From contig DFFS01000040.1 of assembly GCA_002371075.1 (NCBI GenBank), positions 1 through 16,379 of the forward strand: a stretch of DNA of 16,379 bases, written 5' to 3'. The notes under the pieces were generated by a model, which was not told the origin of the DNA, searched no databases, and saw only the letters and a program-made list of their open reading frames with translations. Below, one piece after another: positions 1,281 through 16,379 of the stretch (position 1 is its first letter; the number at the start of each line of letters is the position of its first letter). This stretch comes from Christensenella sp. UBA3770. Lineage in GTDB: Bacteria > Bacillota > Clostridia > Christensenellales > CAG-1252. The position numbers were made by a program, and so were the translations under genes.

Positions 1281-1309
1281 TTGACGAAATAACGGCGCTG
1301 TCGTATAAT
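1281..1309 (+). promoter_or_regulatory. Sigma-A type promoter for the metal-resistance operon
   Basis: The -35 TTGACG is at 1281-1286 and the -10 TATAAT is at 1304-1309. The spacer is exactly 17 bp. Confidence 0.6.
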
Positions 1310-1316
1310 GATAACA

Positions 1317-1343
1317 GTTGAACAAGTATTCAACCGTTCAACC
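1317..1343 (+). promoter_or_regulatory. ArsR/SmtB-type operator dyad between the -10 and the RBS
   Basis: A TGAACA-AG-TATTCA imperfect inverted repeat sits at 1319-1332. It is nested in an outer dyad, GTTGAAC (1317-1323) and GTTCAAC (1336-1342). The TGAA..TTCA core is characteristic of SmtB/CzrA/CadC-family operators. The position is consistent with autorepression. Confidence 0.5.
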
Positions 1344-1356
1344 TTGGAGGTGTGAT

Positions 1357-1722
1357 ATGAAAAAGATCGTTTCCGACCTTTGCGAAGACGACGTTATCCA
1401 CGTGGGCGTGGTTGAAAAAGTGCGTGCCGCCATCCCCGACGAGGACGTTCTCGTTGACGTGGCGGAGCTTTTTAAGGTGTTTGGCGACAGCACGCGCACC
1501 CGTATTCTTTCGGCGCTTTTCGTGTCGGAGCTTTGCGTTTGCGACATCGCCAGTTTGTTAAATATGACAAAATCCGCCGTTTCCCATCAGCTTCGCATCT
1601 TGCGTCAAACCAAGATCGTAAAAAACCGCAAGCAGGGGAAGGAAGTGTATTATTCGCTTGATGACGAGCATATCTCGCGTATTTATAAAATGGCTCTTGA
1701 ACATTTATCGGAGGAAAAATAG
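1357..1722 (+). CDS. cadC: ArsR/SmtB-family metalloregulatory repressor (CadC-like; Cd/Pb/Zn-sensing type)
   Basis: The RBS GGAGG at 1346-1350 lies 6 nt before the ATG at 1357. The upstream TTG at 1318 (track start) lies inside the operator and has no RBS. The protein has the HTH 'KSAVSHQLRILRQTKIV', the alpha3 metal motif 'ELCVCDIA' (CVC), and an N-terminal Cys in 'DLCEDD', as in alpha3N-site sensors. The stop TAG at 1720-1722 abuts the next ATG. Confidence 0.85.
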   Translation: MKKIVSDLCEDDVIHVGVVEKVRAAIPDEDVLVDVAELFKVFGDSTRTRILSALFVSELCVCDIASLLNMTKSAVSHQLRILRQTKIVKNRKQGKEVYYSLDDEHISRIYKMALEHLSEEK

Positions 1723-1950
1723 ATGAAAAAGGTTTATGAATTAACAGATCTGTGCTGCGCCGCTTGCGCCGCCGAGATCGAGCGTGACGTGAAAAAGATA
1801 GAGGGCGTTGCTTTTTGCAGCGTAAACTTCATTATGCAAAAGATGACCGTCGACTACAAAGACGAGGCGGACGTTCCCTCCGTTTACAAGGCGCTTGTCA
1901 AAGCGGTGCGCCGCGTGGAAGCCGATTGCGAGGTAATCGAGGTAAAGTGA
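1723..1950 (+). CDS. Stand-alone heavy-metal-associated (HMA) domain protein, homologous to the CadA N-terminal metal-binding domain
   Basis: The 75-aa product contains 'LCCAACAAEIERDVKKIEGV', a CxxC metal-binding loop in a ferredoxin-like HMA context. This resembles the CANC motif of CadA N-termini. The ATG directly follows the cadC stop. Confidence 0.8.
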   Translation: MKKVYELTDLCCAACAAEIERDVKKIEGVAFCSVNFIMQKMTVDYKDEADVPSVYKALVKAVRRVEADCEVIEVK

Positions 1951-1951
1951 C

Positions 1952-3835
1952 GTGAAACGCGACAAAAAGCTGTTGATCCGCATCATCGTGGCGTTTGCGG
2001 TGTTTGCCGCCGCCCTGATCCTGTTCAAATTGACGCCGCTACGCAGTTTCGGCGCCGTTGCGGAAGGGTGGAACCTAAGCGATTTCCGTTTCTATTTGTA
2101 CGTTTTGCCGTTTTTGATCGCCTATTTGATCGTCGGATACGACGTCATATACAAAGCGGGCAGAAACCTTGTTTCCGGCAGGCTTCTTGACGAAAACTTT
2201 TTGATGGTGGTGGCGACCTTTGGCGCCGTGGCGCTTTTGGACCTGCCCGAAGCGTGCGGCGTGATGCTGTTTTATCAGATCGGCGAGTTGTTTCAGCGCT
2301 ATGCCGTCGGCAAATCGCGCCGTTCCATTGCCGCGCTGATGAACATTCGTCCCGACGTGGCGCGCGTTTTGCGTGACGGCGAAGAGGTTTTTCTTTCCCC
2401 TGAGGAAGTTGCGGTTGGCGACGTGCTTGTTTTGCGCGCCGGAGAGCGCGTTCCCGTGGACGCCGTCCTTATGGATGGAGCAGGGAGCTTTGACGTGTCT
2501 TCCCTGACGGGTGAGAGCTTGCCTCGTGATGTCGCAGCGGGGGACGAGGTGCTCAGCGGCTCCATAAACCTCGGCGGAGAGATCAAACTGCGCGCGGTAA
2601 AACCCTATGGGGAATCCACCGTGCAAAAGATCCTTGATCTTGTGGAAAACGCCGCCGCCAAAAAGGCGCAGGCGGAGAACTTTATCACAAAATTCGCGCG
2701 CTATTATACGCCCGTCGTCGTTGTCGCGGCGCTCTTGATCGGGCTTGTCCCGCCCCTCTTTTTGGGAAATTGGGGCGGGTGGATCAAAAAGGCGCTGACC
2801 TTCCTTGTGGTCTCCTGTCCTTGCGCGCTTGTCATCTCGGTGCCGCTCTCCTTCTTCGGTGGGATCGGCGGCGCGTCCAAAAAGGGCATTCTTGTCAAAG
2901 GGGGCGCGGCGCTTGAGCGCTTGGCAAAAGCGAACGTCTTTTTGTTTGATAAAACGGGGACCATCACCGAGGGCAAATTTTCCGTCGTGGAGGTGTTTCC
3001 GTCCGAGCGTGCTTCGGAGGTGCTGACGGCGGCAGCCATTGCCGAAAGCGCGTCCAATCACCCGATCGCACGGTCCGTCGTTGCGTTTGCTCCGGCGGTG
3101 GATCACGCGGGTTATACGATTCGGGAAATCGTCGGACGCGGGGTCAAAGCCGTCAAAGAGGGTGACGAGATCCTTGTCGGCAACGCGGCGCTCCTTTCGG
3201 AGGAAGGCGTCGATTTTGAACCTTGTAAGCGGGGCGGCACGACCCTTTACGTGGCGAGAAACGGCGCGTTTATCGGGTGGTTGACGGTTTCCGACACGCC
3301 CAAAGAAAACGCCGCAGAGGTCGTTGCGGCGCTGAAAAAAGAGGGTTGTATGACCGTTATGCTGACGGGCGATCACAGGGGCGCGGCAAAAGAGGTTGCC
3401 GAACGGGTGGGCGTGGATGCTTACGTTGCGGAATTGTTGCCGCAAGATAAGGCGGCGTATATGGAAAAGATCCTTAGGGAGCAGGCGGGAAAGACCGTTT
3501 GCTTTGTCGGCGACGGCATCAACGACGCTCCCGTCCTTGCCATGGCGGACGTGGGCGTTTCTATGGGCGGCATCGGCAGCGACGCTGCGATCGAGGCTTC
3601 CGACGTGGTGTTGATGCGGGATGACCTTGCCTCCATAAAAGAGGGCAGAGGCATCGCCAAAAAGACGATGCGCATCGTGCGCGAAAACATTGCCGTCGCG
3701 CTTGGCGTCAAGGTGGGGGTTCTCCTTTTGACGGCGGTTGGGCTGATGGGGGCTTTTGCCATGTGGCTTGCGGTGTTTGCGGACGTCGGCGTGGCGATGC
3801 TTGCGATCCTAAACGCGATGAGAACGCTTCGCTGA
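1952..3835 (+). CDS. cadA: P1B-type heavy-metal (Cd2+/Zn2+/Pb2+) translocating ATPase lacking an N-terminal HMA domain
   Basis: The TM6 motif is 'SCPCALVIS' (CPC). The phosphorylation site is 'FDKTGTIT' and the HP motif is 'SNHPIA'. The protein also has 'MLTGDH', the hinge 'VGDGINDAP', and 8 predicted TM helices. A GTG start at 1952 is preceded by GAGGTAA, 6 nt upstream. Confidence 0.9.
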   Translation: MKRDKKLLIRIIVAFAVFAAALILFKLTPLRSFGAVAEGWNLSDFRFYLYVLPFLIAYLIVGYDVIYKAGRNLVSGRLLDENFLMVVATFGAVALLDLPEACGVMLFYQIGELFQRYAVGKSRRSIAALMNIRPDVARVLRDGEEVFLSPEEVAVGDVLVLRAGERVPVDAVLMDGAGSFDVSSLTGESLPRDVAAGDEVLSGSINLGGEIKLRAVKPYGESTVQKILDLVENAAAKKAQAENFITKFARYYTPVVVVAALLIGLVPPLFLGNWGGWIKKALTFLVVSCPCALVISVPLSFFGGIGGASKKGILVKGGAALERLAKANVFLFDKTGTITEGKFSVVEVFPSERASEVLTAAAIAESASNHPIARSVVAFAPAVDHAGYTIREIVGRGVKAVKEGDEILVGNAALLSEEGVDFEPCKRGGTTLYVARNGAFIGWLTVSDTPKENAAEVVAALKKEGCMTVMLTGDHRGAAKEVAERVGVDAYVAELLPQDKAAYMEKILREQAGKTVCFVGDGINDAPVLAMADVGVSMGGIGSDAAIEASDVVLMRDDLASIKEGRGIAKKTMRIVRENIAVALGVKVGVLLLTAVGLMGAFAMWLAVFADVGVAMLAILNAMRTLR

Positions 3836-3838
3836 AAA

Positions 3839-3862
3839 AACCGCCGTTCGGGCGGTTTTGTT
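3839..3862. terminator. Probable bidirectional rho-independent terminator between the convergent cadA and lipoprotein genes
   Basis: The stem aaccgcc (3839-3845) pairs with ggcggtt (3851-3857) and is followed by TTTGTTG. On the opposite strand it is preceded by an A-run, so it is usable in both directions. Confidence 0.55.
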
Positions 3863-3899
3863 GTAAAAGTAGATTATTCCACTTGTTTTATAAAAATCT

Positions 3900-5615
3900 T
3901 TATTCTTCGTCTTTGGGTAGGATCAAGCCCTCAAGCTCGATGCCGATCACGTCGATGGTCATGCGGACCTTTTCCGTATCTCCCTCTTTCGTGTAAGTAT
4001 AGCGGATATACGATTCGCCTTTTCCGACGGCGTTGTTGACGTAGATCGCCGTATAGGTCTTATCGCCCGCCGTGACGGTCTCCAGCGTGTAGGTCCCCAC
4101 GCATTCAATGCCGATCACGTCGTCAAATGCGTCGGGGTCGTCAACGATCAGTTGTCCCGTTTGGGCATATCGCGCGAAGATGGCTTGCAGGTGCGGGTTG
4201 TCGTAATCCAACCCGATGATCCTGATCCCATAGTATTCCTCAATGGCTTTGAGCACGCCGGCAAGGTCGGTCTCTTCCACGCCCGGGGCAATGTCGGAGA
4301 AGTAGTAGGACGCAAGCCCGAAAGCAAATTCCGAATTCAGATTAAAACCGCTTTTTTTGACCGTATCTTTCAAGATGCCGGTCACCAGTTCCAACAGCGG
4401 AACGGTCAGCTTGTACGTTCCGTCTTTTTCAAACGTGATGCTCGCTTGTTTTTTGTCGATCGCACCGGTGTACTCATCTCCGAATACGGCAAAGTACGAA
4501 ACGTCAAAACGCTTTGTGACGTCAAAGGTCCTGCCCGATCTGACCGCCTTATAAACGGTGGGAAGGACGCCGTTTGTCCCGTCAAAGTAAGCTTTGCTTA
4601 CTTCGCCAAAGGTTGCGGCGCGCATGATGGCTTTTTTGATGCTTTCTTTGTTTTCAATGTCGCCGTACAGGCGGTTTAACTGGCTGACCTTTTGCTTTTT
4701 GTATTGATACAGCGCGTTGGGAGCGGCAAGCCCGTGCGACGCAAGTTTGTCTTGCAACAGTTCCGCAAGGATGGCGTGGCCTTCCGAGGAGGGGTGCACG
4801 CCGTCTGAGCAAAACAGGCGTTGCCAACGATCGTTGTCTTTTTCGTAGATGCTTTCAAACGCCGAGTACACGTCGATCAGTTCAAAGGGCTTGACGGTGT
4901 TTCCGTCTTCGTCAACGTAGGTATGCTCTTCCGCGTAGTCTATGAGGGTTTGGTTGATCGTGCGGATCAACTTGTCCATAACCGCGTGATATTTTTGGGG
5001 CCCGATACCCTTTGAGGCAAGCACGCTGCGTGCATAAGAGGGAACGAGCGGGCTGTCTTCTCCGGCGGGGTTATACAGCGTTTGCACAAAGATCAGGGCG
5101 TTTGGATTGAGACGCTTGAGGGTCGCAAAGGTGTTTTCAAAGTTTGCTTTCGCCGTCTCCTGACGGGGGGTGATGCGATCGTAAACGTCGTTTGAAAGGT
5201 CGATCATCAGCTGATTGTGGCTGGAGTTCAAAAAGTCGTTGCCGATGTTGGAGATGTGAATGATGTCGGCGGTGGAAATATAGGTGCGCACGAGGTTGAT
5301 ACCGTCGTCCTCTCGCTCGACAAAATGCATCAGGTCTTCCGTCGTATAGGCGGTCACGGCGCGATTGTGAAACGAAAAGTCGTTGATCGTGCCGACAATG
5401 CCGTAGTAGCCGTAGTTTTCGCGCTCCGTCAACGGGCAGGGACCGGCAAGCGCTTCGCCGATGGAGTCGCCGAGGAAAAGGATCTCCGTTTTTTTCTCTG
5501 TCGTAACGGCAGCTGTCTCTTGCGTTTCTTCGCGCTTTTGCACGCAGGCAAAAAGCGCCGTGAACGTCACGACAAGCACAAGCAATATGGCGGTAAGCAA
5601 AAATATCCTTTTCAT
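3900..5615 (-). CDS. Secreted lipoprotein with an N-terminal SGNH/GDSL-family hydrolase (lipase/esterase) domain and a ~250-aa C-terminal domain of unknown function
   Basis: A lipoprotein signal 'MKRIFLLTAILLVLVVTFTALFAC' is present, with lipobox L-F-A-C. The SGNH block I is 'ILFLGDSIGE' and block V is 'CSDGVHPSSEGH', of the DxxH type. The start was chosen at 5615, because the upstream ATG at 5648 lies inside the -10 hexamer of the promoter. Confidence 0.75.
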   Translation of the reverse strand: MKRIFLLTAILLVLVVTFTALFACVQKREETQETAAVTTEKKTEILFLGDSIGEALAGPCPLTERENYGYYGIVGTINDFSFHNRAVTAYTTEDLMHFVEREDDGINLVRTYISTADIIHISNIGNDFLNSSHNQLMIDLSNDVYDRITPRQETAKANFENTFATLKRLNPNALIFVQTLYNPAGEDSPLVPSYARSVLASKGIGPQKYHAVMDKLIRTINQTLIDYAEEHTYVDEDGNTVKPFELIDVYSAFESIYEKDNDRWQRLFCSDGVHPSSEGHAILAELLQDKLASHGLAAPNALYQYKKQKVSQLNRLYGDIENKESIKKAIMRAATFGEVSKAYFDGTNGVLPTVYKAVRSGRTFDVTKRFDVSYFAVFGDEYTGAIDKKQASITFEKDGTYKLTVPLLELVTGILKDTVKKSGFNLNSEFAFGLASYYFSDIAPGVEETDLAGVLKAIEEYYGIRIIGLDYDNPHLQAIFARYAQTGQLIVDDPDAFDDVIGIECVGTYTLETVTAGDKTYTAIYVNNAVGKGESYIRYTYTKEGDTEKVRMTIDVIGIELEGLILPKDEE

Positions 5616-5646
5616 TGTTCTCTCGTCAAATATCTTTGACAACAGC

Positions 5647-5675
5647 ATTATAAAGCATAACGCCTTTTATTGCAA
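5647..5675 (-). promoter_or_regulatory. Sigma-A promoter for the lipoprotein gene (minus strand)
   Basis: Read on the minus strand, the promoter is TTGCAA (5670-5675), a 17-nt spacer, and a perfect TATAAT (5647-5652). It sits ~25 nt upstream of the ATG at 5615. Confidence 0.55.
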
Positions 5676-5864
5676 GCGGCGCAAGACGGTTGCCCGTTTT
5701 CTCCGATCGGCTCCGCCGTTTTTCTTAGAAAAACCCATCGGTATCGAATGGTGAAAAATCGCGAAGAAAGGACAGTTTTTTTTGATGTGAAAAATTATTA
5801 TTTATATGTAATTTTTGCCAAAATCTTTTTAAATATATAATTTATCGCAATTTGTAAACATTTA

Positions 5865-5893
5865 TTGACAAAATTTAACAATTAAGTTAAAAT
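5865..5893 (+). promoter_or_regulatory. Sigma-A promoter for the seven-gene operon, within an AT-rich intergenic region
   Basis: A consensus TTGACA at 5865-5870 is followed by a 17-nt spacer and TAAAAT at 5888-5893, which extends to TAAAATATAT. It lies ~60 nt upstream of the ATG at 5953. The region 5760-5900 is ~25% GC, against ~57% for the window. Confidence 0.5.
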
Positions 5894-5952
5894 ATATATT
5901 AAGACTACAGTTTTAGTACGTCGAAATTCAAAAGAGCGGGGATGCTTGCCTA

Positions 5953-8649
5953 ATGAGCCAAAACGCAGCGGATCACATCAGTTTTTCCATCATAAACGAC
6001 AAGACGGTCGGCGCTCTCACGATCCACGTTACAAGTGTTCCCGATTATAAGGTTTTCGATACCGAAGACGACGTTGCCGCCGCCGGCGCCATCAAGCAGG
6101 TTTTTACCGCCATCATCAACGAGTTTTCACATTTTGCGTCGCAATCCTCCGTTTCTGCGGAGCTGATGTTGTCGTGCAAATCCGCCGAGAATCAGTTGTT
6201 CCGTTCCTTTGTGGATATCCACGTCGTTTTGCGCGCCGTGGACGTTGATTACGCCGCGTGTCTCAACAACCTGATCCATTGCGGTACGTTGTTTGTGGAG
6301 ACGCTTGGCAACTCCAAAATCGTTTGTGAATATTGCGATTTCAAAGAGTACGCGCAGATCGTTTCCGATTTGAACATGGACGAGGTTTTGACCATTCGTC
6401 GCCCCGATGAATACATCGGTTTCCAAAACGCCTTTTTCCCGTTTTGTTACAACTACGACGCCGTGGAACCCAACGATAAGGACATCGACGCCATCATCAA
6501 CGCGATGATCGCAGAGAAGGATTGTGCCGTGGTCTTATCCATCATTCCCACTTCCTTTACCTATGCGGAGCAAAGCTTCCTTTCCGTCAATTACAATTCG
6601 TTAAACAGGCTTTGCACCGGCATCATGATGCCGCGCATGGGCATGTACAAGGAGGCACGCGCCGAGATCCCGATGCGTACCTACAAAAAGTATTCCGCTT
6701 TTTGCGCCGAGCCCGTTTGTTTGTTTAACATGCAGGTGTGCGGCGATCGCTTGGGGGCAAGAAACATCGCGTCCAAATTCCTGTCCGTTTTGACGGATGA
6801 AAAGGCGCAGTTCTCCACCCGCTTTGAAATTTGCGAAACCAATCATTTCGCCGATCTGTTAAGAAGCATTTACGCTTCGCCCTGGGCGGTTTCGGACGCG
6901 ATCATGCAGTACAACCGCGTCGCATCGCCGTATCCCCAAATGCAAAACGCCTGTTGGCGCTTGGCGTATCTGTATTTGCCCGCCGAGATCGCGCAGGTCT
7001 TCCGCGTTCCGATCGGCACCAAAAAGATCACGGACGGCATCGATATCCATTACATCAACAAGCGTAACAAAAAGTTTGGTCAAGACGTCATCAATTCCGC
7101 GGCGTTCACGATCGGTAAATTGCAAAACGTGATCGGCGATCAGTCGTATATCGGCGTCGGCAAAAAGGATCTGACCAAGCATATGCTCGTCGTGGGTACG
7201 CCGGGTTCCGGTAAATCCACCTTTTTGGTGGGGCTCATGGACCGGTTGTGGAAGCAGGGCATCCCCTTTTTGGTCATTGAACCCGCCAAGACGGAGTATC
7301 GCGGGCTGATCGATTCCATTCCCGATCTGCAGGTGTTCTCTCCCGGCAACAACGAGGTCTCGCCTTACGTGATCAATCCGTTCGTTCCCCCCAAGGGCGT
7401 TTCGGTGGAAAAACACAAATCCATCGTCAAAGCGGCGTTTTCCGCCGCGTTTGAGATGTGGACGCCGCTTGATCAACTTTTTGACGAGACGCTCAACATT
7501 TGTTACAGCGAGCAGGGCTGGCTGGACAGCGACGTCGTGGAAGAGGGAGCGGATTGCTTCTCGCTGATCGATTTTGTAAAGACCTATCGCGAGGTGGTTG
7601 CTTCCAAGGGTTACAGCGGGGAGTATAAAAAGCAGATCGAAGCCGCCGGCGTACTGCGCCTCAACGGTTTGTTGGAGCAAAACATCAACATCTTCGACAC
7701 GCGTTATTCCGTGCCCATCGAGGACATCTTAAAGGCGCCCACCGTCATTGAGCTTTCCAACGTAAAGGACATCAAGCAAAAGTCCTTTATCATCGCTTAT
7801 CTTTTGAACAACATTTACGCTTACGTCGAGGCAAACAACAGCAACGACGGCAATTTGAAAAACGTGATCCTTTTGGAGGAAGCGCACGTCCTTTTGGACG
7901 CCGGCTCCGTGGTGGGGGACGAGGGTCCCAACGCAAACGCCGCCGCCGTCAAGTTGCTTACCGATATGCTTGCGGAGATCCGCTCGCGCGGCGTGGGCAT
8001 CGTCGTGGCGGATCAGTCGCCAAAAAAGGTCACCTCGCCCGTGATCTCCAACACCAACGTCAAAGTGATGTTCCGTTTGGTGGAAAAGGCGGATAAGGAG
8101 ATCGTAAAGAACTCCACCGGCATGACCGACTTGCAGGAGGAGAGGCTCTCGCGCTTGTCCACCGGCGAGGCGCTTTTGTATTTTGACAAATTGGACGAAG
8201 TGGAAGAGATCCGTATGGACGACTACCGCTTGTCGGCGGGCATCGCCACCGATCTCAGAGACGCCGACGTCAAGGCGCGCATCACCTATTGGCAAAAGCA
8301 CGCCTATCTTTTGAAGCCGTTCCCCGATTGCGATTGCATCGGCTCCTGCAGCGGCGGTTGCGACCCGTTGAAGAGAAACAGGGCGCGCATCATTGCGGAT
8401 AGGATCTTCCGCAAAAATTACCCCAAAAACTTCCACGATTTTGAAACGTTTAAAGCCTTCTATCGGCAGATGAACCTTGCCGTTAAGGAGGAGACCCTTG
8501 CCGTGTTTAAGGGCGCTGTGGACCCCGCCGACGTGTTGGATTGCGCAAAGGTGCATTTCCTCAGAAAGGTAAACTATTTCACCAACATCGAGGTCAACTT
8601 CACACTCAGAAAAAACACGTACGCACGTGCGAAGAAACCCTTGCAATAA
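5953..8649 (+). CDS. HerA/FtsK-clade (DUF87-like) P-loop ATPase, with a ~340-aa uncharacterised N-terminal domain and a Cys-rich C-terminal tail
   Basis: Walker A is 'MLVVGTPGSGKST' (K421). 'VIEPAKTEY' is HerA 'DPxGEY'-like. Walker B is 'VILLEEAHVLL', the EEAH type, at 639-645. 'GVGIVVADQSPKKV...NVKVMFRL..KAD' corresponds to the HerA 'TQRP' arginine-finger region. The pre-ATPase segment 'IGTKKITDGIDIH...IGKLQNVIGDQSYIGVGKKDL' resembles the HerA N-terminal barrel. The C-terminus carries 'CDCIGSCSGGCD'. Confidence 0.8.
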   Translation: MSQNAADHISFSIINDKTVGALTIHVTSVPDYKVFDTEDDVAAAGAIKQVFTAIINEFSHFASQSSVSAELMLSCKSAENQLFRSFVDIHVVLRAVDVDYAACLNNLIHCGTLFVETLGNSKIVCEYCDFKEYAQIVSDLNMDEVLTIRRPDEYIGFQNAFFPFCYNYDAVEPNDKDIDAIINAMIAEKDCAVVLSIIPTSFTYAEQSFLSVNYNSLNRLCTGIMMPRMGMYKEARAEIPMRTYKKYSAFCAEPVCLFNMQVCGDRLGARNIASKFLSVLTDEKAQFSTRFEICETNHFADLLRSIYASPWAVSDAIMQYNRVASPYPQMQNACWRLAYLYLPAEIAQVFRVPIGTKKITDGIDIHYINKRNKKFGQDVINSAAFTIGKLQNVIGDQSYIGVGKKDLTKHMLVVGTPGSGKSTFLVGLMDRLWKQGIPFLVIEPAKTEYRGLIDSIPDLQVFSPGNNEVSPYVINPFVPPKGVSVEKHKSIVKAAFSAAFEMWTPLDQLFDETLNICYSEQGWLDSDVVEEGADCFSLIDFVKTYREVVASKGYSGEYKKQIEAAGVLRLNGLLEQNINIFDTRYSVPIEDILKAPTVIELSNVKDIKQKSFIIAYLLNNIYAYVEANNSNDGNLKNVILLEEAHVLLDAGSVVGDEGPNANAAAVKLLTDMLAEIRSRGVGIVVADQSPKKVTSPVISNTNVKVMFRLVEKADKEIVKNSTGMTDLQEERLSRLSTGEALLYFDKLDEVEEIRMDDYRLSAGIATDLRDADVKARITYWQKHAYLLKPFPDCDCIGSCSGGCDPLKRNRARIIADRIFRKNYPKNFHDFETFKAFYRQMNLAVKEETLAVFKGAVDPADVLDCAKVHFLRKVNYFTNIEVNFTLRKNTYARAKKPLQ

Positions 8650-8681
8650 AGGGAGAATAAAAAACCAAGGAGGAAAGTGCA

Positions 8682-10349
8682 ATGGCAGATGATTTCAATG
8701 ATTCGTTTGACGGCAGTTCGGTAGAGGAGTTTTCTTCGGATTCCTATACGGATTTCTCAAGTGAAGAGACCTACGAACAATCGTCGGACGCATTCATCAG
8801 CGATTATGACGACACGATTTCCGCCACGGACTATGAGACAACCGAGGATGACAGTGGGTTGGAGGAAAACGACTATGATGACTCTTATAACGATTACGTG
8901 TCGGAAGAGGAGCAAGAGGAAGAGTATATCGTAGAGAATGACGATTTTGAAGAGACCGTAACGGAGCCTTCGGCTGACCCCGAAGACGCTTTTATTTCCG
9001 ATCTCGATGAAGTGATCCAAGAGGAGGACGAAGGTTTATCCGATGAGGAACAAAGCGAACTCTACTTGGAGGAGGATGAGGAAGAACCGCAAGAGGTTGA
9101 ACTGCAAGAAGAAGAGAGCCAAGAAGAGTATTTGGCGGACGAGGACGACGAGCAGATCGCGGAGTCGGAAGAAACCGATCCCGATGCTTCCGAGTTTGTT
9201 GCCGACACGGATAATATCCAGCCGCAATACGGCACCCTCGCAGAGTATTTGAACGGGCACAACTACGGGCAGGAGGATTATGACGTTTATTCACAAGATC
9301 CCGAGTGGAGAAGATTGTATTCAATTGAGTACCCCGATGCGGAATTGCCCCCGCTTACGTCGGAAAGTATTGACAACATTCTTGCGCCGTACGAAGGGAA
9401 AACGTATGATTCCTTGGGTGAGTACTTAAGTGATCACAACTTCGGACAGGCAGATTATGAGATCTATTCCCAAGACCCCGAATGGCGCAGATTGTATTAT
9501 GAGCAATATCCCGATGCCACGCTTCCGCCCCTCAGTCAGGAAAGGATCGATGACATTCTCGCCCCGTACGAGGGAAAAACGTACGATACGGTGGAGGACT
9601 ACCTCAACGACCACAACTTCGGGCAAGGAGATTACGATATCTATTCAAGGGATCCCGAATGGCAACGCCTTACAGGAAACGATGCTCCGAGGATTTTAGA
9701 TGATTTCGAACAAGGGTATACGGCAGAGCATCCCGATTTTAAAGATTATTATCAATCGGGGCGCTTTTATGATCAAGGTGCTAATGAATATGGTTTTAAC
9801 GGAACGTGCGGACCAACTTCTCAAGCCAACGCAGTTAATTATTTGTTAGGAACCAATGAATACACGGAGAACAAGGTCTTAAAAATTGCCGTTGAAAACA
9901 ATTTATGTACCTTAACCGGGCCTTCCGGTGATCAAGGAGGAACAACAACGCAACAGTTTATGGACCTGTATGATCGGGTCAATGAGCAGACCGGTGGTCA
10001 GCTTAATGTTGAGTTGCACGATTTTGACAAGGCACTAAGCATTGAAGAAATGGCTTCGAAAATCGAAGAGGGAAGCGTGTTGAACGTAGCTGTTGACAGT
10101 AGCGCCTTGTGGGATAAAGAACGTGAATTCAGTCCATTCGGATACAATGAAAGTTTTTATACCGATCATTGGATAACGGTGACCGGAGTCGATAGGGATG
10201 AATCAGGTGAAATCCAAGGTTTTAAAATTATTGATTCCGGCGGTGGAGTCGACTATGTTGACGTAGATAAATATGATAGAATGTGTTTTGGCACCGATCA
10301 GCACAGAGTCAACGATCCAACGATGATCGTTGTTTCCAAAAAAGGTTAA
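8682..10349 (+). CDS. Tripartite protein: polyacidic low-complexity N-terminus, three 59-aa tandem repeats, and a C-terminal papain-like cysteine peptidase domain (C39-like)
   Basis: The RBS AAGGAGGAAAG lies before the ATG at 8682. Residues 1-180 are >40% D/E. The repeat unit is 'Y(G/D)xLxEYLxxHN(Y/F)GQxDY(D/E)(V/I)YSQDPEWRRLY...YPDAxLPPL(T/S)xExIDxILAPYEGKT', present three times. The C-terminal domain has 'NGTCGPTSQANAVNYLLG' (Cys376), then 'TDHWITVTGVD' (His496), then 'FKIIDSGGG'. This is the Cys...His...Asp order and spacing of papain-fold peptidases. Confidence 0.75.
   Translation: MADDFNDSFDGSSVEEFSSDSYTDFSSEETYEQSSDAFISDYDDTISATDYETTEDDSGLEENDYDDSYNDYVSEEEQEEEYIVENDDFEETVTEPSADPEDAFISDLDEVIQEEDEGLSDEEQSELYLEEDEEEPQEVELQEEESQEEYLADEDDEQIAESEETDPDASEFVADTDNIQPQYGTLAEYLNGHNYGQEDYDVYSQDPEWRRLYSIEYPDAELPPLTSESIDNILAPYEGKTYDSLGEYLSDHNFGQADYEIYSQDPEWRRLYYEQYPDATLPPLSQERIDDILAPYEGKTYDTVEDYLNDHNFGQGDYDIYSRDPEWQRLTGNDAPRILDDFEQGYTAEHPDFKDYYQSGRFYDQGANEYGFNGTCGPTSQANAVNYLLGTNEYTENKVLKIAVENNLCTLTGPSGDQGGTTTQQFMDLYDRVNEQTGGQLNVELHDFDKALSIEEMASKIEEGSVLNVAVDSSALWDKEREFSPFGYNESFYTDHWITVTGVDRDESGEIQGFKIIDSGGGVDYVDVDKYDRMCFGTDQHRVNDPTMIVVSKKG
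9228..9716 (+). repeat. In-frame tandem repeat with a 177-nt period, ~2.75 copies (9228-9404, 9405-9581, 9582-~9716), inside the peptidase gene
   Basis: The unit boundaries fall exactly 177 nt apart (9228, 9405, 9582). Protein identity between copies is ~65-70%, but the nucleotide sequences differ at many synonymous positions. This points to an old, selected repeat rather than a recent duplication. Confidence 0.8.
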
Positions 10350-10361
10350 GGAGGATTAAAA

Positions 10362-10835
10362 ATGAAAGCATTATCAGCTGTAATGAAGGATTTGGATTTT
10401 AGTTTGTTTGGAGGAGCAAAGGTCCCCCATGGGTTATCTCATCCGATTGTCAGATATGAAAACGGGGAGTTCTATTTTGCTGTTTTCGCTTTTGGATTGT
10501 CTGCCGAAAAGGTCAGAACCAATCAGCTTGGGAAACCTTCTAAATGGGCTTTGGCGGATTTGGAATCAGGGGAAATTAAGTTCACTTTTTCTTGTATGGA
10601 AAAGGATTTTTCACCTGCTTCGGAAGATATCCTTTATGATATGAGCACATTTGCGGGAGATCGTCCGACTCAAAAAGATGTGGAAAAGGTTTACGAACAA
10701 TTTGAGGCGATCAGAAGCACATACGTAAGCAATAAAGATGCTGTTTTGCCGCTAATAAAAGAATATATGGAAGCTTTATCCAAAGTCGTGCCTACAGCAT
10801 ATTTTAAATTTTATAAAGATCTTTCGAACATTTAA
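10362..10835 (+). CDS. Hypothetical 157-aa cytoplasmic protein encoded immediately downstream of the peptidase gene; immunity or inhibitor candidate
   Basis: The RBS GGAGGA lies 8 nt before the ATG. The protein has no TM segment and no recognisable motifs. It shares the low-GC composition (~40-45%) of the upstream gene. Confidence 0.7.
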   Translation: MKALSAVMKDLDFSLFGGAKVPHGLSHPIVRYENGEFYFAVFAFGLSAEKVRTNQLGKPSKWALADLESGEIKFTFSCMEKDFSPASEDILYDMSTFAGDRPTQKDVEKVYEQFEAIRSTYVSNKDAVLPLIKEYMEALSKVVPTAYFKFYKDLSNI

Positions 10836-10855
10836 CGAAAAGGGAGGATAGAAAA

Positions 10856-12079
10856 ATGCCAATTGTAGAAACCATTAAATATGAAGGACCGCAAGACGCC
10901 CTTGTCTGGAGAAATTCAGGCAAGGAATACACCATCGGAAAAGATGGCAGCATTAACATGGGATCGCAGCTGATCGTCGACGAGTTTTACGAGGCGATCC
11001 TGTTTGCCAACGGCAACGCGCTTGACTTGTTTAAGCCCGGGCGCCACACCTTGATCACGCAAAATATTCCGATGCTCAAGGAACAGTTTGAAAGGCTGAC
11101 CACCTCTACGCCGTTCCCCGTCAAAGTGTACTTTATCAACAAAGTGCATCAGTTGGAACTCAAGTGGGGAACGCAGGGACCCATCATGGTGGACGATCCC
11201 GTTTACAGCATTTTCCTGCACGTCGGTTGCTGCGGAACGATGGCAATCAGGATCTCCGATTCGAGAAAGTTCCTTTTGAAGTTTGTCGGAAACAAAGAAT
11301 CCTACACAAACAACGATCTCGTCGGTAATTTGAGAGGCATCATTTCCTCTAAGGTCAAGGAGTATATCTCCAAGATCATGATCGAGGGCAGGGTCAGCTT
11401 CTTTGTAATGAATGCAAAGATCGCCGACATAGCAGAGCTGGTGAAACAACAGTTGCAACCCATTTTCGATTCGTACGGCTTGGAGATCCAGTTTTTTAAC
11501 ATCGAGACCATCGACGTTCCCAAGGAAGATTATCAAATGTTGCAAGACGCCAAGAATAACAGGGCGTATTACGACATCAACGCCGAAAAGTGGGAGAAAG
11601 AAAAGATGTTTGAAGTTCTCAGAACCGCTGCCGGCAACGAGGGCATGGCAGGCAACATGATGGGTGCCGGCATGGGACTCGGCATGGGCATCGGCTTCGG
11701 CGCTCCGATGGGACAGGCGATGGGCAACATCACCAATTCCGTCTTCGGATCCGCGCAAATGGGCGGCGGCGCAGGCGCATCGCCTCGTCAAAATGAGGCG
11801 CCCAAAAACATATACAATCAAAACAGCGGTTTGGGTATGAACGTCAATGACTTTTTGAATAAAAACATGGCAAACGCCGCTCCCGCCGCCCCCGCAGGCG
11901 CAGCAGGGCAACCCGCCCCCGCGTTCTGCCCGCAGTGCGGCGCGCCGTTGATGCCCGGCGCAAGGTTCTGCTCAACCTGCGGCGCAAAAATCGAACAGAA
12001 AAACGTGTGTCCCGCTTGCGGCGCGGAAGTTCCGCCCAACGCAATGTTCTGCGGCATGTGCGGACAAAAGCTTAAGTAA
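10856..12079 (+). CDS. SPFH/band-7 (stomatin/prohibitin-like) domain protein with a Gly/Met-rich linker and a C-terminal double zinc ribbon (COG4260/YdjI-like)
   Basis: The RBS AAGGGAGGA is present. The N-terminal ~250 aa has an alternating beta/alpha SPFH-like pattern ('LVWRNSGKEYTIGKDGSI..GSQLIVDEFYEAILFANGNALDLFKPGRHTL'), consistent with the YdjI-type SPFH family. A low-complexity linker 'GNEGMAGNMMGAGMGLGMGIGFGAPMGQAMGN' follows. Two zinc-ribbon motifs follow, 'FCPQCGAPLMPGARFCSTCGA' and 'VCPACGAEVPPNAMFCGMCGQ'. Confidence 0.8.
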   Translation: MPIVETIKYEGPQDALVWRNSGKEYTIGKDGSINMGSQLIVDEFYEAILFANGNALDLFKPGRHTLITQNIPMLKEQFERLTTSTPFPVKVYFINKVHQLELKWGTQGPIMVDDPVYSIFLHVGCCGTMAIRISDSRKFLLKFVGNKESYTNNDLVGNLRGIISSKVKEYISKIMIEGRVSFFVMNAKIADIAELVKQQLQPIFDSYGLEIQFFNIETIDVPKEDYQMLQDAKNNRAYYDINAEKWEKEKMFEVLRTAAGNEGMAGNMMGAGMGLGMGIGFGAPMGQAMGNITNSVFGSAQMGGGAGASPRQNEAPKNIYNQNSGLGMNVNDFLNKNMANAAPAAPAGAAGQPAPAFCPQCGAPLMPGARFCSTCGAKIEQKNVCPACGAEVPPNAMFCGMCGQKLK

Positions 12080-12094
12080 AAGGAGGGTTTGACA

Positions 12095-12835
12095 ATGAAT
12101 GAAAATAAACAAATCGGTAAAAAAGCGTTCTCAGCCGGATTGATCATCTTTACCATCATTATCGCGGTTTTGAATTTGATCATCTTTACGATCTTTAAGC
12201 CCCTGAAACTGGAAACCAATCACTTAAAATTGATCTTCTGGTTCTCATACGGCTTTATGATGTTGGCGTACGTCTTGCAGGTGGTTTCCATCTTCACCGG
12301 CAGATATGAAAACGGGGTGGAATCCGTCTTCTTCAGCATTCCGATGTACAAGGTGGCCATTTTCTACTTTGCCGTTGCCGCTGTGCTCTCCTTGCTCTTT
12401 ATGATACTGGTCAGCTTTGGCGTCGCGGTGCCGTTTATGCTGATGTTCATTTTGGAGATCATCGTCTTGGCGGTGTTTGCCATCGCGTTCGTGCTTAGTT
12501 ACACGCACAAAAACGTCGTCCTTGACATTGACAAGAACATCAAAGCAAACGTCTTTAAGATCCGCACGCTCGTGACCGACGTGGAGGTGCTTGCCGAGGC
12601 GGTGAACGACAACGCCGCGCTCAAAGCAAAGCTCGCCCGTCTGGCGGAGGATATCCGTTATTCCGATCCGATGACCAACGATTCCGTCAAGGATCTTGAC
12701 CTTCAAATGAGGGATCTTGTCGCCGAGCTCGAGCTTGTCGTCAGCGAAAAGGACTACGCGCAAGCGGAGACCCTTATCAGACAAGCGACGTTGACGATGT
12801 CAAAGAGGAACAAGCGTTTGGCTGACGGAAAATAG
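12095..12835 (+). CDS. Integral membrane protein (~4 TM helices) with a C-terminal cytoplasmic coiled-coil region
   Basis: The RBS AAGGAGGG at 12080-12087 lies 7 nt before the ATG at 12095. The track's TTG at 12089 is less likely. The hydrophobic segments are 'GLIIFTIIIAVLNLIIFTIF', 'LIFWFSYGFMMLAYVLQVVSIF', 'VAIFYFAVAAVLSLLFMILVSFGV' and 'FMLMFILEIIVLAVFAIAFVL'. The tail 'EVLAEAVNDNAALKAKLARLAEDIRY...LQMRDLVAELELVV' is helical with heptad periodicity. Confidence 0.7.
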   Translation: MNENKQIGKKAFSAGLIIFTIIIAVLNLIIFTIFKPLKLETNHLKLIFWFSYGFMMLAYVLQVVSIFTGRYENGVESVFFSIPMYKVAIFYFAVAAVLSLLFMILVSFGVAVPFMLMFILEIIVLAVFAIAFVLSYTHKNVVLDIDKNIKANVFKIRTLVTDVEVLAEAVNDNAALKAKLARLAEDIRYSDPMTNDSVKDLDLQMRDLVAELELVVSEKDYAQAETLIRQATLTMSKRNKRLADGK

Positions 12836-12848
12836 GAGTTAGACAACT

Positions 12849-14822
12849 ATGGCAGAAAGATTTACCAGCCAAAGATGTCAGGACTGCCAGGGCGGTCTTG
12901 AATACAACAAGGCGGGGAAATATTGGGAGTGCCCGTATTGCGGCAAGATCTACGAGAGGGAACTACGTTTCAACAAGGTCCAAATCGACGGTCTTGCCGG
13001 CATCAACGACCTGGTGCGTTCCACCCTTTCAAAGGTGGTCAAGCTGGATTTTTCGGGTGCGGAAAGGGACTATTTGGAGTGTGAAAAGATCAACCACTTA
13101 AGCGTCGGCACCGCGATCGCGGGTATGGCGCTAAGCCTCTTCAAGGCGTTTACCACAAAGGACAGACAGGCGGAGATCGCCAAGCTAAATAGCTTGGCGC
13201 AAAAGTTTTCAAAGGACTTTCCCACGATAGAAGACGAGGAGGAGATCCTGTACGAATATATTGCGTCGCAAGACATCTACGCCATGCTCGTCGTGCTTTA
13301 CAGTACGATCAAACAGACAAAGCGCTTGGAGCAAATGTATTTGTTGCTTGATTGCAAAGAAGTGTACGAGCAAAGCATCTCCAAATTTCTCCTAAACGTG
13401 CTTTTGAAGGATGGGAAGGTGGAGGACGCGGACGTCATCATCGGCAATCTGTCCGAGGCAAACAGCCGCTTTGGCATCATGTCGGTGCTCAAGGACTATC
13501 CTGGCAACGACAAAAAGGTCCAACATATCCAAATCCTTTTGAAAAGGTACAAATCCGAGTTCAGCCTTGCTAAAACCTTCGAAGATTATTTTGACGCCAC
13601 CGAGGATCCTTCCGACGTGGTGATCGGCATCTTCCTCGCGGCAATCGAAAAAGGGGTCCAATTTAACGTGGACAGCACGTTGGAAATGGTGCTTGAGAAC
13701 TGCACGGACGAGGACGCCGCAAACAGAGTTTTCGGCGCGCTTTCGCACGTGCGCTTTTCCGATCAGGCGGCGGAGACGATCGTCAACTGGTGCCTTTTGG
13801 AAGCGGAGAGCGCGGAAATCTGCGCGATCGGCATAAAATCGTTGTTTGAAAGCAACACGATCTTTGAGCTCACCTACGATATGTGCGTTCTGCTGTTCGA
13901 TTCCGATCAAGACCCCGATCTGATCATCGGAAAGTTTAAGGTGCTTTTAAGCACGTTGCGCGCTCCGAGTAGGTGCTTGGACAGGTTGATCTCATACGTT
14001 CTCCTTGAAACGGACGGCGAAACGAGAGGAGAGCTGTTTGACGAACTGTTCTCTCGCGTAAACAGCGTGTCGCTCAGCGTTCTTAACGATTACGTTTTGA
14101 AAGTGTACGACGATGGGGAAGAGAAACGGGACATCTTGCAAAAGGTCCTGGAAAAGTCCAAGACCTCTTTCGACTACTCGCTTTTGTCAAATTATCTGAG
14201 GACGGATATCGATGAGTCGGAGACCCGCGAAGGGGTGATCGAAACTTTGCTTGAAGCAAAGTTGATCCCCGATTGCGAGTCGTATACATATTATCTTGTC
14301 AACGAAGACGAGTTACATTCCGACGAAATGTTGGATCTTTTGGATCAAAAGAACATTCGTCCCTCGTCTTCCGCCTTGGATCAGTATTTCCGAAACGTTG
14401 ACCCCGACGAGTTTAACCCCAAGATCGCTTACCTTGCCACAAAAGCCTCCTATCGCTTGAGCGCGGAGGCGTATGCGCGCTATATCCTTGAAATCAGCGA
14501 ACCGCAAAACCGCAAAGCGCACAGCGCGGTCGTGTATTTGGAACAAACGGACGTTTCGGCGCTGCGTAACGCGCAGTTTTCCGCAACGGTCGCAGGCAAA
14601 AAGGTCACCGGCAATCTTGCGGAGATATATATTTTCGTCACCGGCGACGAAGCTTTCGTCGTGCAGGAAGTTCTCGGCTGCTTGAAAAAGCAAAAAATCA
14701 GGATCGACGAGACCATCGAAGTGGAGGGGGAGAAAAAGAGCGTGAAGATGAAGAAATTCATCGAGGAAAATCCCACCGCCGTCCCCGCTTCCATCAAGAG
14801 CGCCGTCGTTCAATTTTTATAA
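12849..14822 (+). CDS. 657-aa protein with an N-terminal Cys4 zinc ribbon followed by a large acidic alpha-helical domain of unknown function
   Basis: The RBS TAGGAG overlaps the upstream stop. 'CQDCQGGLEYNKAGKYWECPYCGKIY' has the form CxxC-x15-CxxC. The rest is predicted to be helical and D/E-rich, with no enzymatic motifs. Confidence 0.75.
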   Translation: MAERFTSQRCQDCQGGLEYNKAGKYWECPYCGKIYERELRFNKVQIDGLAGINDLVRSTLSKVVKLDFSGAERDYLECEKINHLSVGTAIAGMALSLFKAFTTKDRQAEIAKLNSLAQKFSKDFPTIEDEEEILYEYIASQDIYAMLVVLYSTIKQTKRLEQMYLLLDCKEVYEQSISKFLLNVLLKDGKVEDADVIIGNLSEANSRFGIMSVLKDYPGNDKKVQHIQILLKRYKSEFSLAKTFEDYFDATEDPSDVVIGIFLAAIEKGVQFNVDSTLEMVLENCTDEDAANRVFGALSHVRFSDQAAETIVNWCLLEAESAEICAIGIKSLFESNTIFELTYDMCVLLFDSDQDPDLIIGKFKVLLSTLRAPSRCLDRLISYVLLETDGETRGELFDELFSRVNSVSLSVLNDYVLKVYDDGEEKRDILQKVLEKSKTSFDYSLLSNYLRTDIDESETREGVIETLLEAKLIPDCESYTYYLVNEDELHSDEMLDLLDQKNIRPSSSALDQYFRNVDPDEFNPKIAYLATKASYRLSAEAYARYILEISEPQNRKAHSAVVYLEQTDVSALRNAQFSATVAGKKVTGNLAEIYIFVTGDEAFVVQEVLGCLKKQKIRIDETIEVEGEKKSVKMKKFIEENPTAVPASIKSAVVQFL

Positions 14823-14845
14823 AAATCTAAACAAAGGAGGGAGGT

Positions 14846-16379
14846 ATGACTCAGGAAGAATATGATCGTTATATGGCCGAGCAAGAACGGTTGATCAATG
14901 AGTACAACGCGTTGGTCGCAAGAAAAAGCCGGTTGATCGATGAGTACAACATGCTTGTCGAAGAACTGACTTATGCGATCGAAGCGACCGTCAGCGTGAT
15001 CAATCAGACGAACAAGGTCAAAAACCACATCGTTCCGAGGCTTACGGAGTCGGAAGCGGCGGTAACGGTAGTCAACGGCATGGTCAAAGACGTCCAGCGC
15101 GAAATAGAGCAACTGGCGGAAAAGTATTTCTTGATGAAAAACATTTCCACGGCGTCCAAGAAGATGATGCAGCTCAACAACGAGTATCAACAAAAATTCG
15201 GGCTGTACAACATGCTGCGCAGGGTCACGCTCGGTTACGTTGTCGGTGTTGACAGCAACATCATCAGCAACGAGTCGTTGCGCAAAACCGTGGAGAAAAA
15301 CTACCTGCAAAACGCCGATTACTGGATCTCGCACTGCATTATGGCAACGATGCTGTGGGTCAGCGACGAAAAGGAGGCGGCGTACCGCGCGCTCAACAAA
15401 GCGCTCAGCATCGACCGCAAAAAGGCATCGCTGTTTTTCTTACTTTTGAACTTGCGTTTCGGCCGCAACGAGGAGGCGGGAAGGTGGTTTGAATTTTACA
15501 TTCAGGACATCGACGTCAACAACGTCGGCGACGAGATCATCATCTTGTTCCAAGCTTATCTTTACAACGTTTGCGGCAACGAACCGGAGATCAAGGGACG
15601 TATCCGTGAAAAGTTGGACGGTTTGCTTGCGGAAATTCGCCAAAACACGCGCGATTATGACGAGGACATCAAGGTGTCGCTGTTAAAACACATTTCCGCT
15701 TACGTGCACAAGACCAGAGAAGAGTTTGAGAAGATGGAGGATTTCTGCAAGGATTACAAGACGATGATCCAAGCGTTGGAAAGCGCCGAAAAGAACGGTG
15801 ATTTCGCCAAATTCTACAACGAGCTCTACGTCAGCGACGACAATGCGCCCAAGGATCTTTTGACCCGTATAGAAAACGTGTTGTACGACCTTATCAACAC
15901 CTATGACGAGGTGGAAAAGATCATCATCCGCGATATGAATTACAACGAGATGATCCTCAAGGCAAACGGCGACATTGCGGCGGCGCAAAAGATGTATCAA
16001 GCCAAATACAACGAGGGCAAGCCCCAGACGCTGGGCGAACTGATGATCAGGCTTTCGCTTCCGACGGTGGGCGACGACGTGGATATCCGCGTCAAAAAGT
16101 TTGCCATTTCCTTCTTGGTGGAGAGCATCAAAAAAGCCTTTGAAGCTTATCAACAGGAATATCGCAAAACCGCAGTTGACGTCCACGAGGTGGTCATCGA
16201 TTCCTTTACCATCAAGGTGGACGAGAAAGAGCCGCGCAAAGCCGCCGAAGACCTTAAGCAAACGTACAAGAAAAACAAAAATAAGCTTGTCAACAAGGAT
16301 AGGGGCGTAAAAGCCTTTACGGGGCTCAGTGTCTTCTTCTGCATCGCGTTTGCCATCATGGTCGCGCTGGTGTGCGTGC
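14846..16379 (+). CDS. Large coiled-coil protein (>511 aa, 3'-truncated by window end) with a hydrophobic TM segment at the window edge
   Basis: A strong RBS AAAGGAGGGAGG lies 6 nt before the ATG at 14846. My manual translation of 14846-16379 found no in-frame stop. It begins 'MTQEEYDRYMAEQERLINEYNALVARKSRLIDEYNMLVEEL' and ends 'GLSVFFCIAFAIMVALVCV'. It is absent from the supplied ORF track because no stop codon falls in the window. The two minus-strand track ORFs here are antisense artefacts. Confidence 0.7.
   Translation, partial: MTQEEYDRYMAEQERLINEYNALVARKSRLIDEYNMLVEELTYAIEATVSVINQTNKVKNHIVPRLTESEAAVTVVNGMVKDVQREIEQLAEKYFLMKNISTASKKMMQLNNEYQQKFGLYNMLRRVTLGYVVGVDSNIISNESLRKTVEKNYLQNADYWISHCIMATMLWVSDEKEAAYRALNKALSIDRKKASLFFLLLNLRFGRNEEAGRWFEFYIQDIDVNNVGDEIIILFQAYLYNVCGNEPEIKGRIREKLDGLLAEIRQNTRDYDEDIKVSLLKHISAYVHKTREEFEKMEDFCKDYKTMIQALESAEKNGDFAKFYNELYVSDDNAPKDLLTRIENVLYDLINTYDEVEKIIIRDMNYNEMILKANGDIAAAQKMYQAKYNEGKPQTLGELMIRLSLPTVGDDVDIRVKKFAISFLVESIKKAFEAYQQEYRKTAVDVHEVVIDSFTIKVDEKEPRKAAEDLKQTYKKNKNKLVNKDRGVKAFTGLSVFFCIAFAIMVALVCV

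Follow-up and report, generated by a model that had tools for sequence, protein, structure and literature searches.

The question raised by this locus is why a papain-like cysteine peptidase domain should stand at the end of a protein that opens with a long, polyacidic leader free of basic residues. The locus lies within a 16,379-nucleotide (nt) stretch of contig DFFS01000040.1 from Christensenella sp. UBA3770, the whole of which is referred to here as the window. The protein, which we term the effector, is a 555-residue product of an open reading frame (ORF) at 8682..10349 (+) comprising the leader, a set of repeats and the papain-like domain; the gene starts with ATG and has an AGGAGG Shine–Dalgarno sequence 8 nt upstream. 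An original prediction from the letters alone had made it a cytoplasmic peptidase. Comparison with related loci leads us instead to a polymorphic-toxin-type effector encoded with a cognate immunity gene and, by inference, exported by products of the surrounding cluster, an explanation to which we give a probability of about 0.6 when taken in full. Its parts differ in strength. A toxin/immunity pair is very likely on sequence evidence, because the C-terminal domain and a downstream 157-residue ORF are swapped jointly, the partners match and other toxin domains occur in the same position. The peptidase is probably itself the toxin, whereas export of the effector by this particular cluster has an even chance of being correct and is suggested by gene association only.

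The cassette nature of the toxin end is apparent from comparison with a metagenomic relative, L001. By blastn, the window and L001 are 91% identical over positions 1–9660 and 10838–16379 and have no similarity between. The unaligned gap corresponds exactly to effector residues ~327–555 plus the 157-residue ORF, defining a replaceable C-terminal toxin and immunity cassette at 9661..10837 (+), and L001 carries in its place an unrelated 224-residue C-terminal domain and a 98-residue ORF. Flanking genes of L001 and of two further loci (L002 and L003) match those of the window on both sides. The upstream junction (nt 9660) falls at the DPEW motif of a third, half-length repeat and the downstream junction 3 nt past the stop codon of the 157-residue ORF. 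This half-repeat (9582–9674) may act as a homologous anchor for cassette exchange, by analogy with the VENN motif in CdiA. Exchange is also seen in another effector, P0028, which is 90% identical to that of the window over residues 1–332 and divergent beyond, while other relatives have the repeats joined to Gln_amidase (Tox-PL1) or Endonuclea_NS_2 placed after the peptidase.

The second half of the cassette is the 157-residue protein (10362..10835, +), proposed as a cognate immunity or inhibitor protein from its linkage to the peptidase domain. With one genome scanned for each species, 32 loci were found to encode this domain, all in Clostridia-named genomes except for three Anaerolinea-labelled bins and one unclassified bin; nearly all loci in this study come from metagenome-assembled sequence, and ORFs in related loci were called by a simple ATG rule. 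A homologue of the 157-residue protein lies downstream of the peptidase domain, on the same strand, in 31 of the 32, and pairwise comparisons within this family give E-values of 5e-30 to 2e-22 at ~30% identity. The downstream protein had been anticipated as a functional partner of the peptidase, and both the linkage and these E-values bear this out. It has neither a signal peptide nor a transmembrane (TM) segment, and the family has no matches in Pfam, NCBIfam or the PDB, including by profile search. From these patterns it is most likely the cognate immunity protein or inhibitor, and the founder of a new family.

Matching of partners extends to effectors with an extra domain after the peptidase, which have a corresponding extra piece downstream. 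Barstar (7e-12) accompanies a barnase-like Ribonuclease tail (3e-11) and an alarmone-hydrolase-type HD_4 domain (6e-9) accompanies RelA_SpoT-like tails, the partner being in both cases fused to a domain like the 157-residue protein. An unclassified tail (locus L033) pairs with a separate Imm74 gene (5e-13) placed before the 157-residue homologue, and one further tail type with a separate 160-residue ORF. We also observed that Endonuclea_NS_2 tails (L006, L019) and RelA_SpoT-like tails (L023–L027) share a terminal PEDSxEAxELQ motif, and that the fused immunity proteins of these two groups have homologous HD_4-like N-terminal parts (31–43% identity), a pattern suggestive of what is left of an older cassette in which a domain was replaced.

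Polymorphism of the effectors is tied to one constant neighbour. Directly upstream of the effector gene is that of a soluble 898-residue ATPase of the HerA/FtsK superfamily (5953..8649, +), identified through Pfam (DUF87/HerA central domain, 7e-10) and the PDB, in which the best sequence match is HerA (4d2i, 2.5e-8). In most genome loci whose contig includes both genes, a few dozen bases at most separate the effector start from the stop codon of this ~900-residue ATPase; in two variant loci it follows an AAA+ ATPase instead. A metagenome search with the ATPase only yielded at least 575 relatives, from which 80 loci were kept. An ORF stands right after the ATPase in 73 of these; 68 of the 73 products are acidic over their first 100 residues and 11 carry the peptidase. 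Grouping 77 effectors by their last 230 residues gives at least 21 sequence types, representatives of which match TNT, Gln_amidase, Endonuclea_NS_2, WHH, ADPrib_exo_Tox and Colicin-DNase, and barnase-like and RelA/SpoT-like domains also occur in the family.

The domain that fills this position in the window (residues 335–555; 9684..10346, +) has a papain-like, C39_2-like fold with a Gln (oxyanion)–Cys–His–Asp catalytic set and belongs to clan CA as a putative peptidase. The residues are Gln365 (9774–9776), Cys376 (9807–9809), His496 (10167–10169) and Asp518 (10233–10235), all on the + strand and near-invariant (>=98%) among 113 homologues. Their predicted placement is canonical, with Cys at the N-terminal end of a helix and adjacent strands bearing His and Asp. 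The fold and the Cys376/His496 pair had been proposed previously, and residue conservation, predicted geometry and structural neighbours all support them. The isolated domain scores 20.8 bits against Peptidase_C39_2 (PF13529) and the full protein 16.7, both below the gathering cut-off of 24, while six distant relatives pass the threshold (best 1e-11); the C39_2 relationship is thus transitive and at the superfamily level. Scans of the effector against Pfam, NCBIfam and PADLOC returned nothing beyond this sub-threshold match, and PDB sequence searches with the effector protein or a peptidase profile gave nothing meaningful. Among more distant relatives of the domain, ~20 (within P0187–P0233) are proteins of 250–335 residues with Sec or lipoprotein signal peptides and four more are parts of RTX (HemolysinCabind) proteins. 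Three or more export routes thus make use of the domain, a spread that is as expected for a mobile toxin domain.

A papain-like domain in such a protein could alternatively be a self-processing peptidase that frees the toxin, the effector being cut in the course of export or afterwards and the 157-residue protein serving to inhibit premature cleavage in the producer cell. C39-family enzymes are classical for leader processing, and in 12 genome loci the domain lies upstream of Endonuclea_NS_2, RelA_SpoT-like, barnase-like or other tails, and in distant relatives it precedes NADase, ART, TNT or RNase domains. A releasing role has been suggested for Tox-PL1, HINT and caspase-like domains in internal positions, and a survey of polymorphic toxin systems by Zhang, de Souza, Anantharaman, Iyer and Aravind (2012; PMC3482391) gives such a position as typical of releasing peptidases. 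However, the domain comes last in most close relatives as well as in the window, so nothing is left to release, and yet its catalytic residues and partner gene are conserved. Most effectors of the system lack it (it is present in 11 of the 73 described above), which makes it dispensable for export, and it is exchanged with its partner like other toxin/immunity pairs. We therefore regard a purely releasing function as rather unlikely, although the peptidase may have a dual role as toxin and releasing enzyme.

The ATPase points to a different alternative, in which the locus is an intracellular conflict or abortive-infection system: the HerA-type ATPase would sense infection and unleash the attached toxin in the producer, and the downstream proteins would be antitoxins. 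Pairs of HerA and effector are a known defence theme, the effectors have no signal peptide, and there are resemblances at the level of the ATPases, namely a sub-threshold match to PADLOC mad8 (1.4e-19), matches to defence-type HerA models at 1e-15 or weaker that cover the ATPase core only, and a weak match of the cluster's AAA+ ATPase to the anti-phage protein IteA. Yet the NCBIfam scores of the HerA-like ATPase are far below curated cut-offs, the rest of the cluster matches no PADLOC model, and no Sir2, DUF4297 or MADS partner was found by PADLOC. Barstar, Imm74, TNT, Colicin-DNase, WHH, ADPrib_exo_Tox and Gln_amidase are families of secreted inter-bacterial toxins and their immunity proteins, an SPFH scaffold and membrane proteins are constant partners of the ATPase, and the peptidase domain occurs also with Sec signals and RTX export modules. 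Together these features make a defence function improbable.

Further observations on the ATPase can be placed here. Its C-terminal part (residues 793–864; window 8329–8544) contains four cysteines, C793, C799, C803 and C864, which are invariant in 21 homologues, and this pattern suggests a zinc-binding module absent from canonical HerA. A full-length homologue (30% identity over 88% of its length) is encoded on a Priestia megaterium plasmid (L121; NZ_CP064271.1, 13809–20282), where it is followed by a 1136-residue protein of tandem acidic, Lys-containing repeats and there is no SPFH gene; these two genes may be distantly related to the system. A phage origin was rejected, as there was one full-length relative of the ATPase in 2.9 million viral contigs and two partial matches among deposited phages.

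The leader, unlike the toxin end, is shared between effectors with otherwise unrelated C-termini. In the window it spans residues 1–179 (8682..9218, +), which are Lys/Arg-free, polyacidic and disordered according to both composition and AlphaFold2 confidence. Residues 1–180 include 78 Asp/Glu (43.3%), no Lys or Arg and 16.7% of ILVMFWC, giving a net charge of −78; on the Uversky charge–hydropathy plot they have a mean hydropathy of 0.352 where the boundary is 0.569, which puts them well into the disordered region. AlphaFold2, run on the full-length effector with a 30-sequence alignment of homologues, gives residues 1–179 a predicted local distance difference test (pLDDT) score of 33–41 and no secondary structure. 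The Uversky plot is clear for residues 1–180 and non-discriminating for the folded peptidase domain, for which AlphaFold2 confidence was used. An extremely acidic, disordered arm of ~180 residues was part of the original prediction, and both properties hold. The first Lys/Arg of the window effector is at residue 209; the median for 84 non-redundant effectors is residue 126, with a value of 595 in one protein. Positional counts over the same 84 sequences reveal a conserved signature at the extreme N-terminus, which in the window reads MADDFNDSFDGSSVE (8682..8726, +) and for which the family consensus is M-[DGSCA]-[DE]-[ED]-[FYM]-[DGN]-[ED]-[SD]-x-D, or in short form M-x-D-E-F-D.

There is a second type of leader with a D[FY]GDGDGVNDFD motif near the N-terminus (L029, L033 and L035; proteins P0144–P0155, P0166 and P0170–P0172), which belongs to a variant cluster with a shorter HerA-like ATPase and the effector after the AAA+ ATPase. 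Acidic leaders of some relatives (P0004, P0111) give sub-threshold Pfam matches to the PF20854 'LED repeat', to which the window effector gives no match. Long minus-strand ORFs at 7729–8682 (−) and 8757–9324 (−) overlap the ATPase and effector genes; a Pfam scan of the 317-residue one gave no match. They are most likely artefacts of the acidic, GA-rich codons that the plus strand carries there.

These properties of the leader also bear on the interpretation offered in the original prediction, in which the protein is a cytoplasmic peptidase and its acidic arm a pro-peptide, or a mimic of DNA or a polycation, that regulates the enzyme or binds a partner in the producer. This would fit the lack of a Sec signal, the extreme polyanion and the tightly coupled downstream gene. 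However, unrelated C-terminal domains of at least 21 types, nucleases and NADases among them, share the arm, the peptidase domain is swapped wholesale in a 91%-identical relative, and the arm has its own signature at the extreme N-terminus that is unrelated to the peptidase. The constancy of the leader and its conserved signature fit a role in trafficking or recognition better than one as a pro-peptide. We consequently find this interpretation very improbable, and the step from a missing signal peptide to a cytoplasmic location is not supported for a gene with the genomic hallmarks of a polymorphic toxin next to an immunity gene. A double-glycine bacteriocin-leader C39 peptidase detached from its ABC transporter can be dismissed as extremely improbable, given that neither the window nor related loci contain an ABC transporter or double-glycine peptide gene, that the best structural neighbours of the domain are not C39 transporter domains and that it behaves genomically as a toxin cassette; the observation that the layout is not that of an ABC-transporter C39 protein was correct.

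Between leader and toxin the polymorphic-toxin effector carries direct repeats with a period of 177 nt, or 59 residues. Repeat 1 (residues 183–241; 9228..9404, +), delimited by repeat search, codon comparison and AlphaFold2, is a helical module, and repeat 2 (residues 242–300; 9405..9581, +) is the same at 42 of 59 residues and 122 of 177 nt. Both are Tyr/Trp-rich and share the core motif L-x-E-Y-L-x-x-H-N-[YF]-G-x-x-D-Y-x-x-Y-S-x-D-P-E-W-x-x-L. A full repeat is predicted by AlphaFold2 to be folded (pLDDT 80–91) as three short helices and a connecting helix. The third copy is a half repeat (residues 301–~331; 9582..9674, +) in which 20–21 of 31 residues match repeats 1 and 2, such that the three modules first proposed amount to two full copies and a half, or 2.5. 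The suggestion that the copies are old and have been kept by protein-level selection stands, because residues are conserved while synonymous sites have diverged: half of the identical residues in repeats 1 and 2 (21 of 42) are encoded by different codons. The copies have diverged too far for Tandem Repeats Finder, which missed the 177-nt repeat that find_repeats detected.

Downstream of the cassette are genes from which the proposed export apparatus is drawn. The first encodes an SPFH protein (Band_7_1; Pfam, 3e-38) with a Gly-rich linker and a double zinc ribbon (10856..12079, +); in 42 of the 48 metagenome loci with enough sequence an SPFH gene lies downstream of HerA and effector, usually followed by a gene for a four-TM (4-TM) protein. 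In the window this second gene encodes a 248-residue membrane protein with a C-terminal coiled coil (12089..12835, +), identified by a hydropathy scan and by its position after SPFH in related loci. Next are a 657-residue protein with an N-terminal zinc ribbon and no annotation for the rest (12849..14822, +) and the first of three paralogous proteins of ~540–600 residues, which runs past the end of the window (14846..16379, partial, +) and by tblastn has 97% identity to a 602-residue protein of L001. Beyond the window, the contig continues with proteins of 542, 52 and 140 residues and an AAA ATPase. The three paralogues (~600, 540 and 570 residues; L001 15982–19408, L004 18075–19778) are 21–27% identical to one another, each having an N-terminal coiled coil, a central W..S.C..A..W ... 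LFF.L.NLRFGR pattern and a C-terminal TM hairpin; they have no relatives in Pfam, NCBIfam or the PDB, and a PDB profile search with the 567-residue paralogue gave only coiled-coil noise. In almost every genome locus, the stretch from the paralogues to the AAA+ ATPase includes a 52-residue acidic protein with a conserved C-terminal LPKWSLEPP..FL motif (L001 19438–19596).

The usual gene order in genome loci selected by the peptidase, whose flanks are otherwise unrelated, is SPFH with zinc ribbon, 4-TM protein, ~660-residue zinc-ribbon protein, HerA-like ATPase, effector, immunity protein, three paralogues and a Cdc48/VCP-like AAA+ ATPase, the run of paralogues being interrupted by an acidic protein of ~55 residues and a protein of ~140 residues. 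The window contains the same genes, but with the pair of ATPase and effector coming first. A 12-gene cluster as an invariant unit was considered and dropped, as the HerA-anchored sample keeps only HerA, effector, SPFH and 4-TM protein within 7 kb. The constant core is the HerA-like ATPase, the SPFH protein and the 4-TM protein. Genes upstream in the window (15–3835) encode a PALP-family enzyme, an Rrf2 regulator and a heavy-metal efflux operon (ArsR regulator, HMA metallochaperone and P-type ATPase), and these housekeeping and metal-efflux genes are syntenic only in the closest relatives and lie outside the system. A divergent gene for a 582-residue GDSL-like lipase/acylhydrolase (3900–5648, −), just upstream of the ATPase gene, is present in syntenic relatives and absent from other loci.

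Several observations weigh against an exported peptidase toxin as the full explanation. The peptidase has an internal position, before another toxin domain, in roughly one genome locus in three, and the same holds for many family representatives with the best scores; PMC3482391 associates such a position with releasing peptidases. The top structural neighbours of the domain include a lyase and an isopeptidase. In the metagenome subfamily anchored on HerA, neither the paralogues nor the AAA+ ATPase appeared within 7 kb. Moreover, no relationship between the apparatus proteins and components of known secretion systems could be detected, and comparison of their genes with curated secretion and defence families produced only generic ATPase-core matches far below cut-off. 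The label of an export machine is for this reason one of guilt by association. We propose only tentatively, at somewhat below even odds, that a protein-export or toxin-delivery system not described before, with a core of HerA/FtsK ATPase, SPFH protein and 4-TM protein, takes the effector as a substrate, and it is with the same reserve that such a system would be considered widespread in anaerobic gut and rumen Clostridia on the strength of the at least 575 metagenomic loci.

If the effector is exported in this way, it would be made in complex with the 157-residue inhibitor, and the adjacent HerA/FtsK-type ATPase would recognise the N-terminal signature and the unstructured polyanionic leader. 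The leader might serve as a nucleic-acid-like polyanion to be threaded by a motor from a superfamily of DNA pumps, with export proceeding through or together with the SPFH/membrane-protein module. In this lineage the three membrane-anchored paralogues and the Cdc48-like unfoldase may assist, the unfoldase by removing the immunity protein. Recipients that lack this protein would then be damaged by the peptidase domain at a target that is presumably cytoplasmic, because the immunity protein has no signal peptide.

Gut Clostridia (Lachnospiraceae, Oscillospiraceae, Ruminococcus) dominate human and ruminant microbiota, and polymorphic toxins typically leave the cell by dedicated non-Sec systems. 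To our knowledge, how gut Clostridia deliver antibacterial toxins is largely unknown. The loci described here link a large and varied set of toxins (peptidase, nucleases, NADases, ADP-ribosyltransferases and alarmone-synthetase-like domains) to one leader and to one conserved ATPase/SPFH/membrane module, which becomes a candidate export route. The signature provides a sequence handle for finding substrates of the system, and two families without a curated model, the papain-like toxin subfamily and the 157-residue inhibitor, are added. A polyanionic leader beside a HerA/FtsK-type motor also raises the mechanistic question of how ATPases of the DNA-pump type came to be adapted for moving proteins. 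A 2026 paper reports that no associated dedicated secretion system is present in most of the gut Bacillota that carry polymorphic nuclease toxins, Ruminococcus metagenome-assembled genomes being an example, and that these toxins may use an unknown secretion mechanism. If our tentative proposal is true, the undescribed system would supply this mechanism for gut Bacillota polymorphic toxins without a type VII secretion system (T7SS).

Comparison with known systems places the locus close to several of them. With the Bacillus subtilis pspA-ydjGHI operon it shares the same domain trio side by side (SPFH/Band 7 in YdjI, membrane protein in YdjH, zinc ribbon in YdjG), but this likeness is one of domain content only: no match to PspA-family models of Pfam or NCBIfam was found among the scanned cluster genes, and the module of the window is linked to an ATPase and toxins. 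A Cdc48-like AAA+ ATPase, and cargo with a disordered N-terminus and no Sec signal, are shared with extracellular contractile injection systems such as the Photorhabdus virulence cassette (PVC), while families of phage sheath, tube, baseplate and spike had no match among the scanned cluster genes. In contrast to the C39 and C39_2 domains of exporters of the peptidase-containing ABC transporter (PCAT)/ComA type and to stand-alone C39-like proteins (PDB 3erv, 8vp3, 5xe8 and 6mpz), the domain in the window has no ABC fusion or neighbour and no GG-leader substrate gene, contains ~40 extra N-terminal helical residues, and has the genomic behaviour of a mobile toxin cassette that carries an inhibitor. 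What Li et al. 2022 call a 'novel Gram-positive polymorphic toxin system' is the S8-peptidase/BetaH system, which is unrelated.

Type VIIb secretion of LXG toxins, driven by the FtsK/SpoIIIE ATPase EssC (Whitney et al. 2017, PMC5555719), is similar in that Gram-positive, Sec-less polymorphic toxins with downstream immunity genes are encoded next to a motor of the FtsK/HerA superfamily. However, the ATPase of the window is a single soluble HerA-type unit that lacks the EssC architecture (TIGR03928 match, E 0.05), and the effector's leader is disordered and acidic whereas LXG is a helical hairpin. Scans with Pfam and NCBIfam found no WXG100 or LXG domain in the effector and no match to EsaA, EssA, EssB or YukD families among the scanned cluster genes.

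The closest correspondence is with polymorphic toxin systems in general. The survey of Zhang et al. (PMC3482391) describes a constant N-terminal region with an exchangeable C-terminal toxin, joint replacement of the C-terminal domain and downstream immunity gene, and a repertoire of toxins (TNT, WHH, Colicin-DNase, Endonuclea_NS_2, Gln_amidase/Tox-PL1, ART) and immunity proteins (Imm74, Barstar), all of which are shared with the loci analysed here. The warhead of the window corresponds in kind to the 'Tox-PL-C39' class of papain-fold toxins, reported there with Imm-SuFu, whereas the 157-residue immunity family has no Pfam model. In the survey's export table, as represented by the PVC, T7SS and TcdB/TcaC rows, no trafficking mode matches the leader, the DPEW repeats or the HerA, SPFH and 4-TM genes. 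A search of the literature and curated databases returned no described system, family or solved structure for this cluster. Thus, what is new here, against the background of a well-known architecture, is the combination of leader and repeat module, a papain-like warhead subfamily without a curated model, and a new immunity family.

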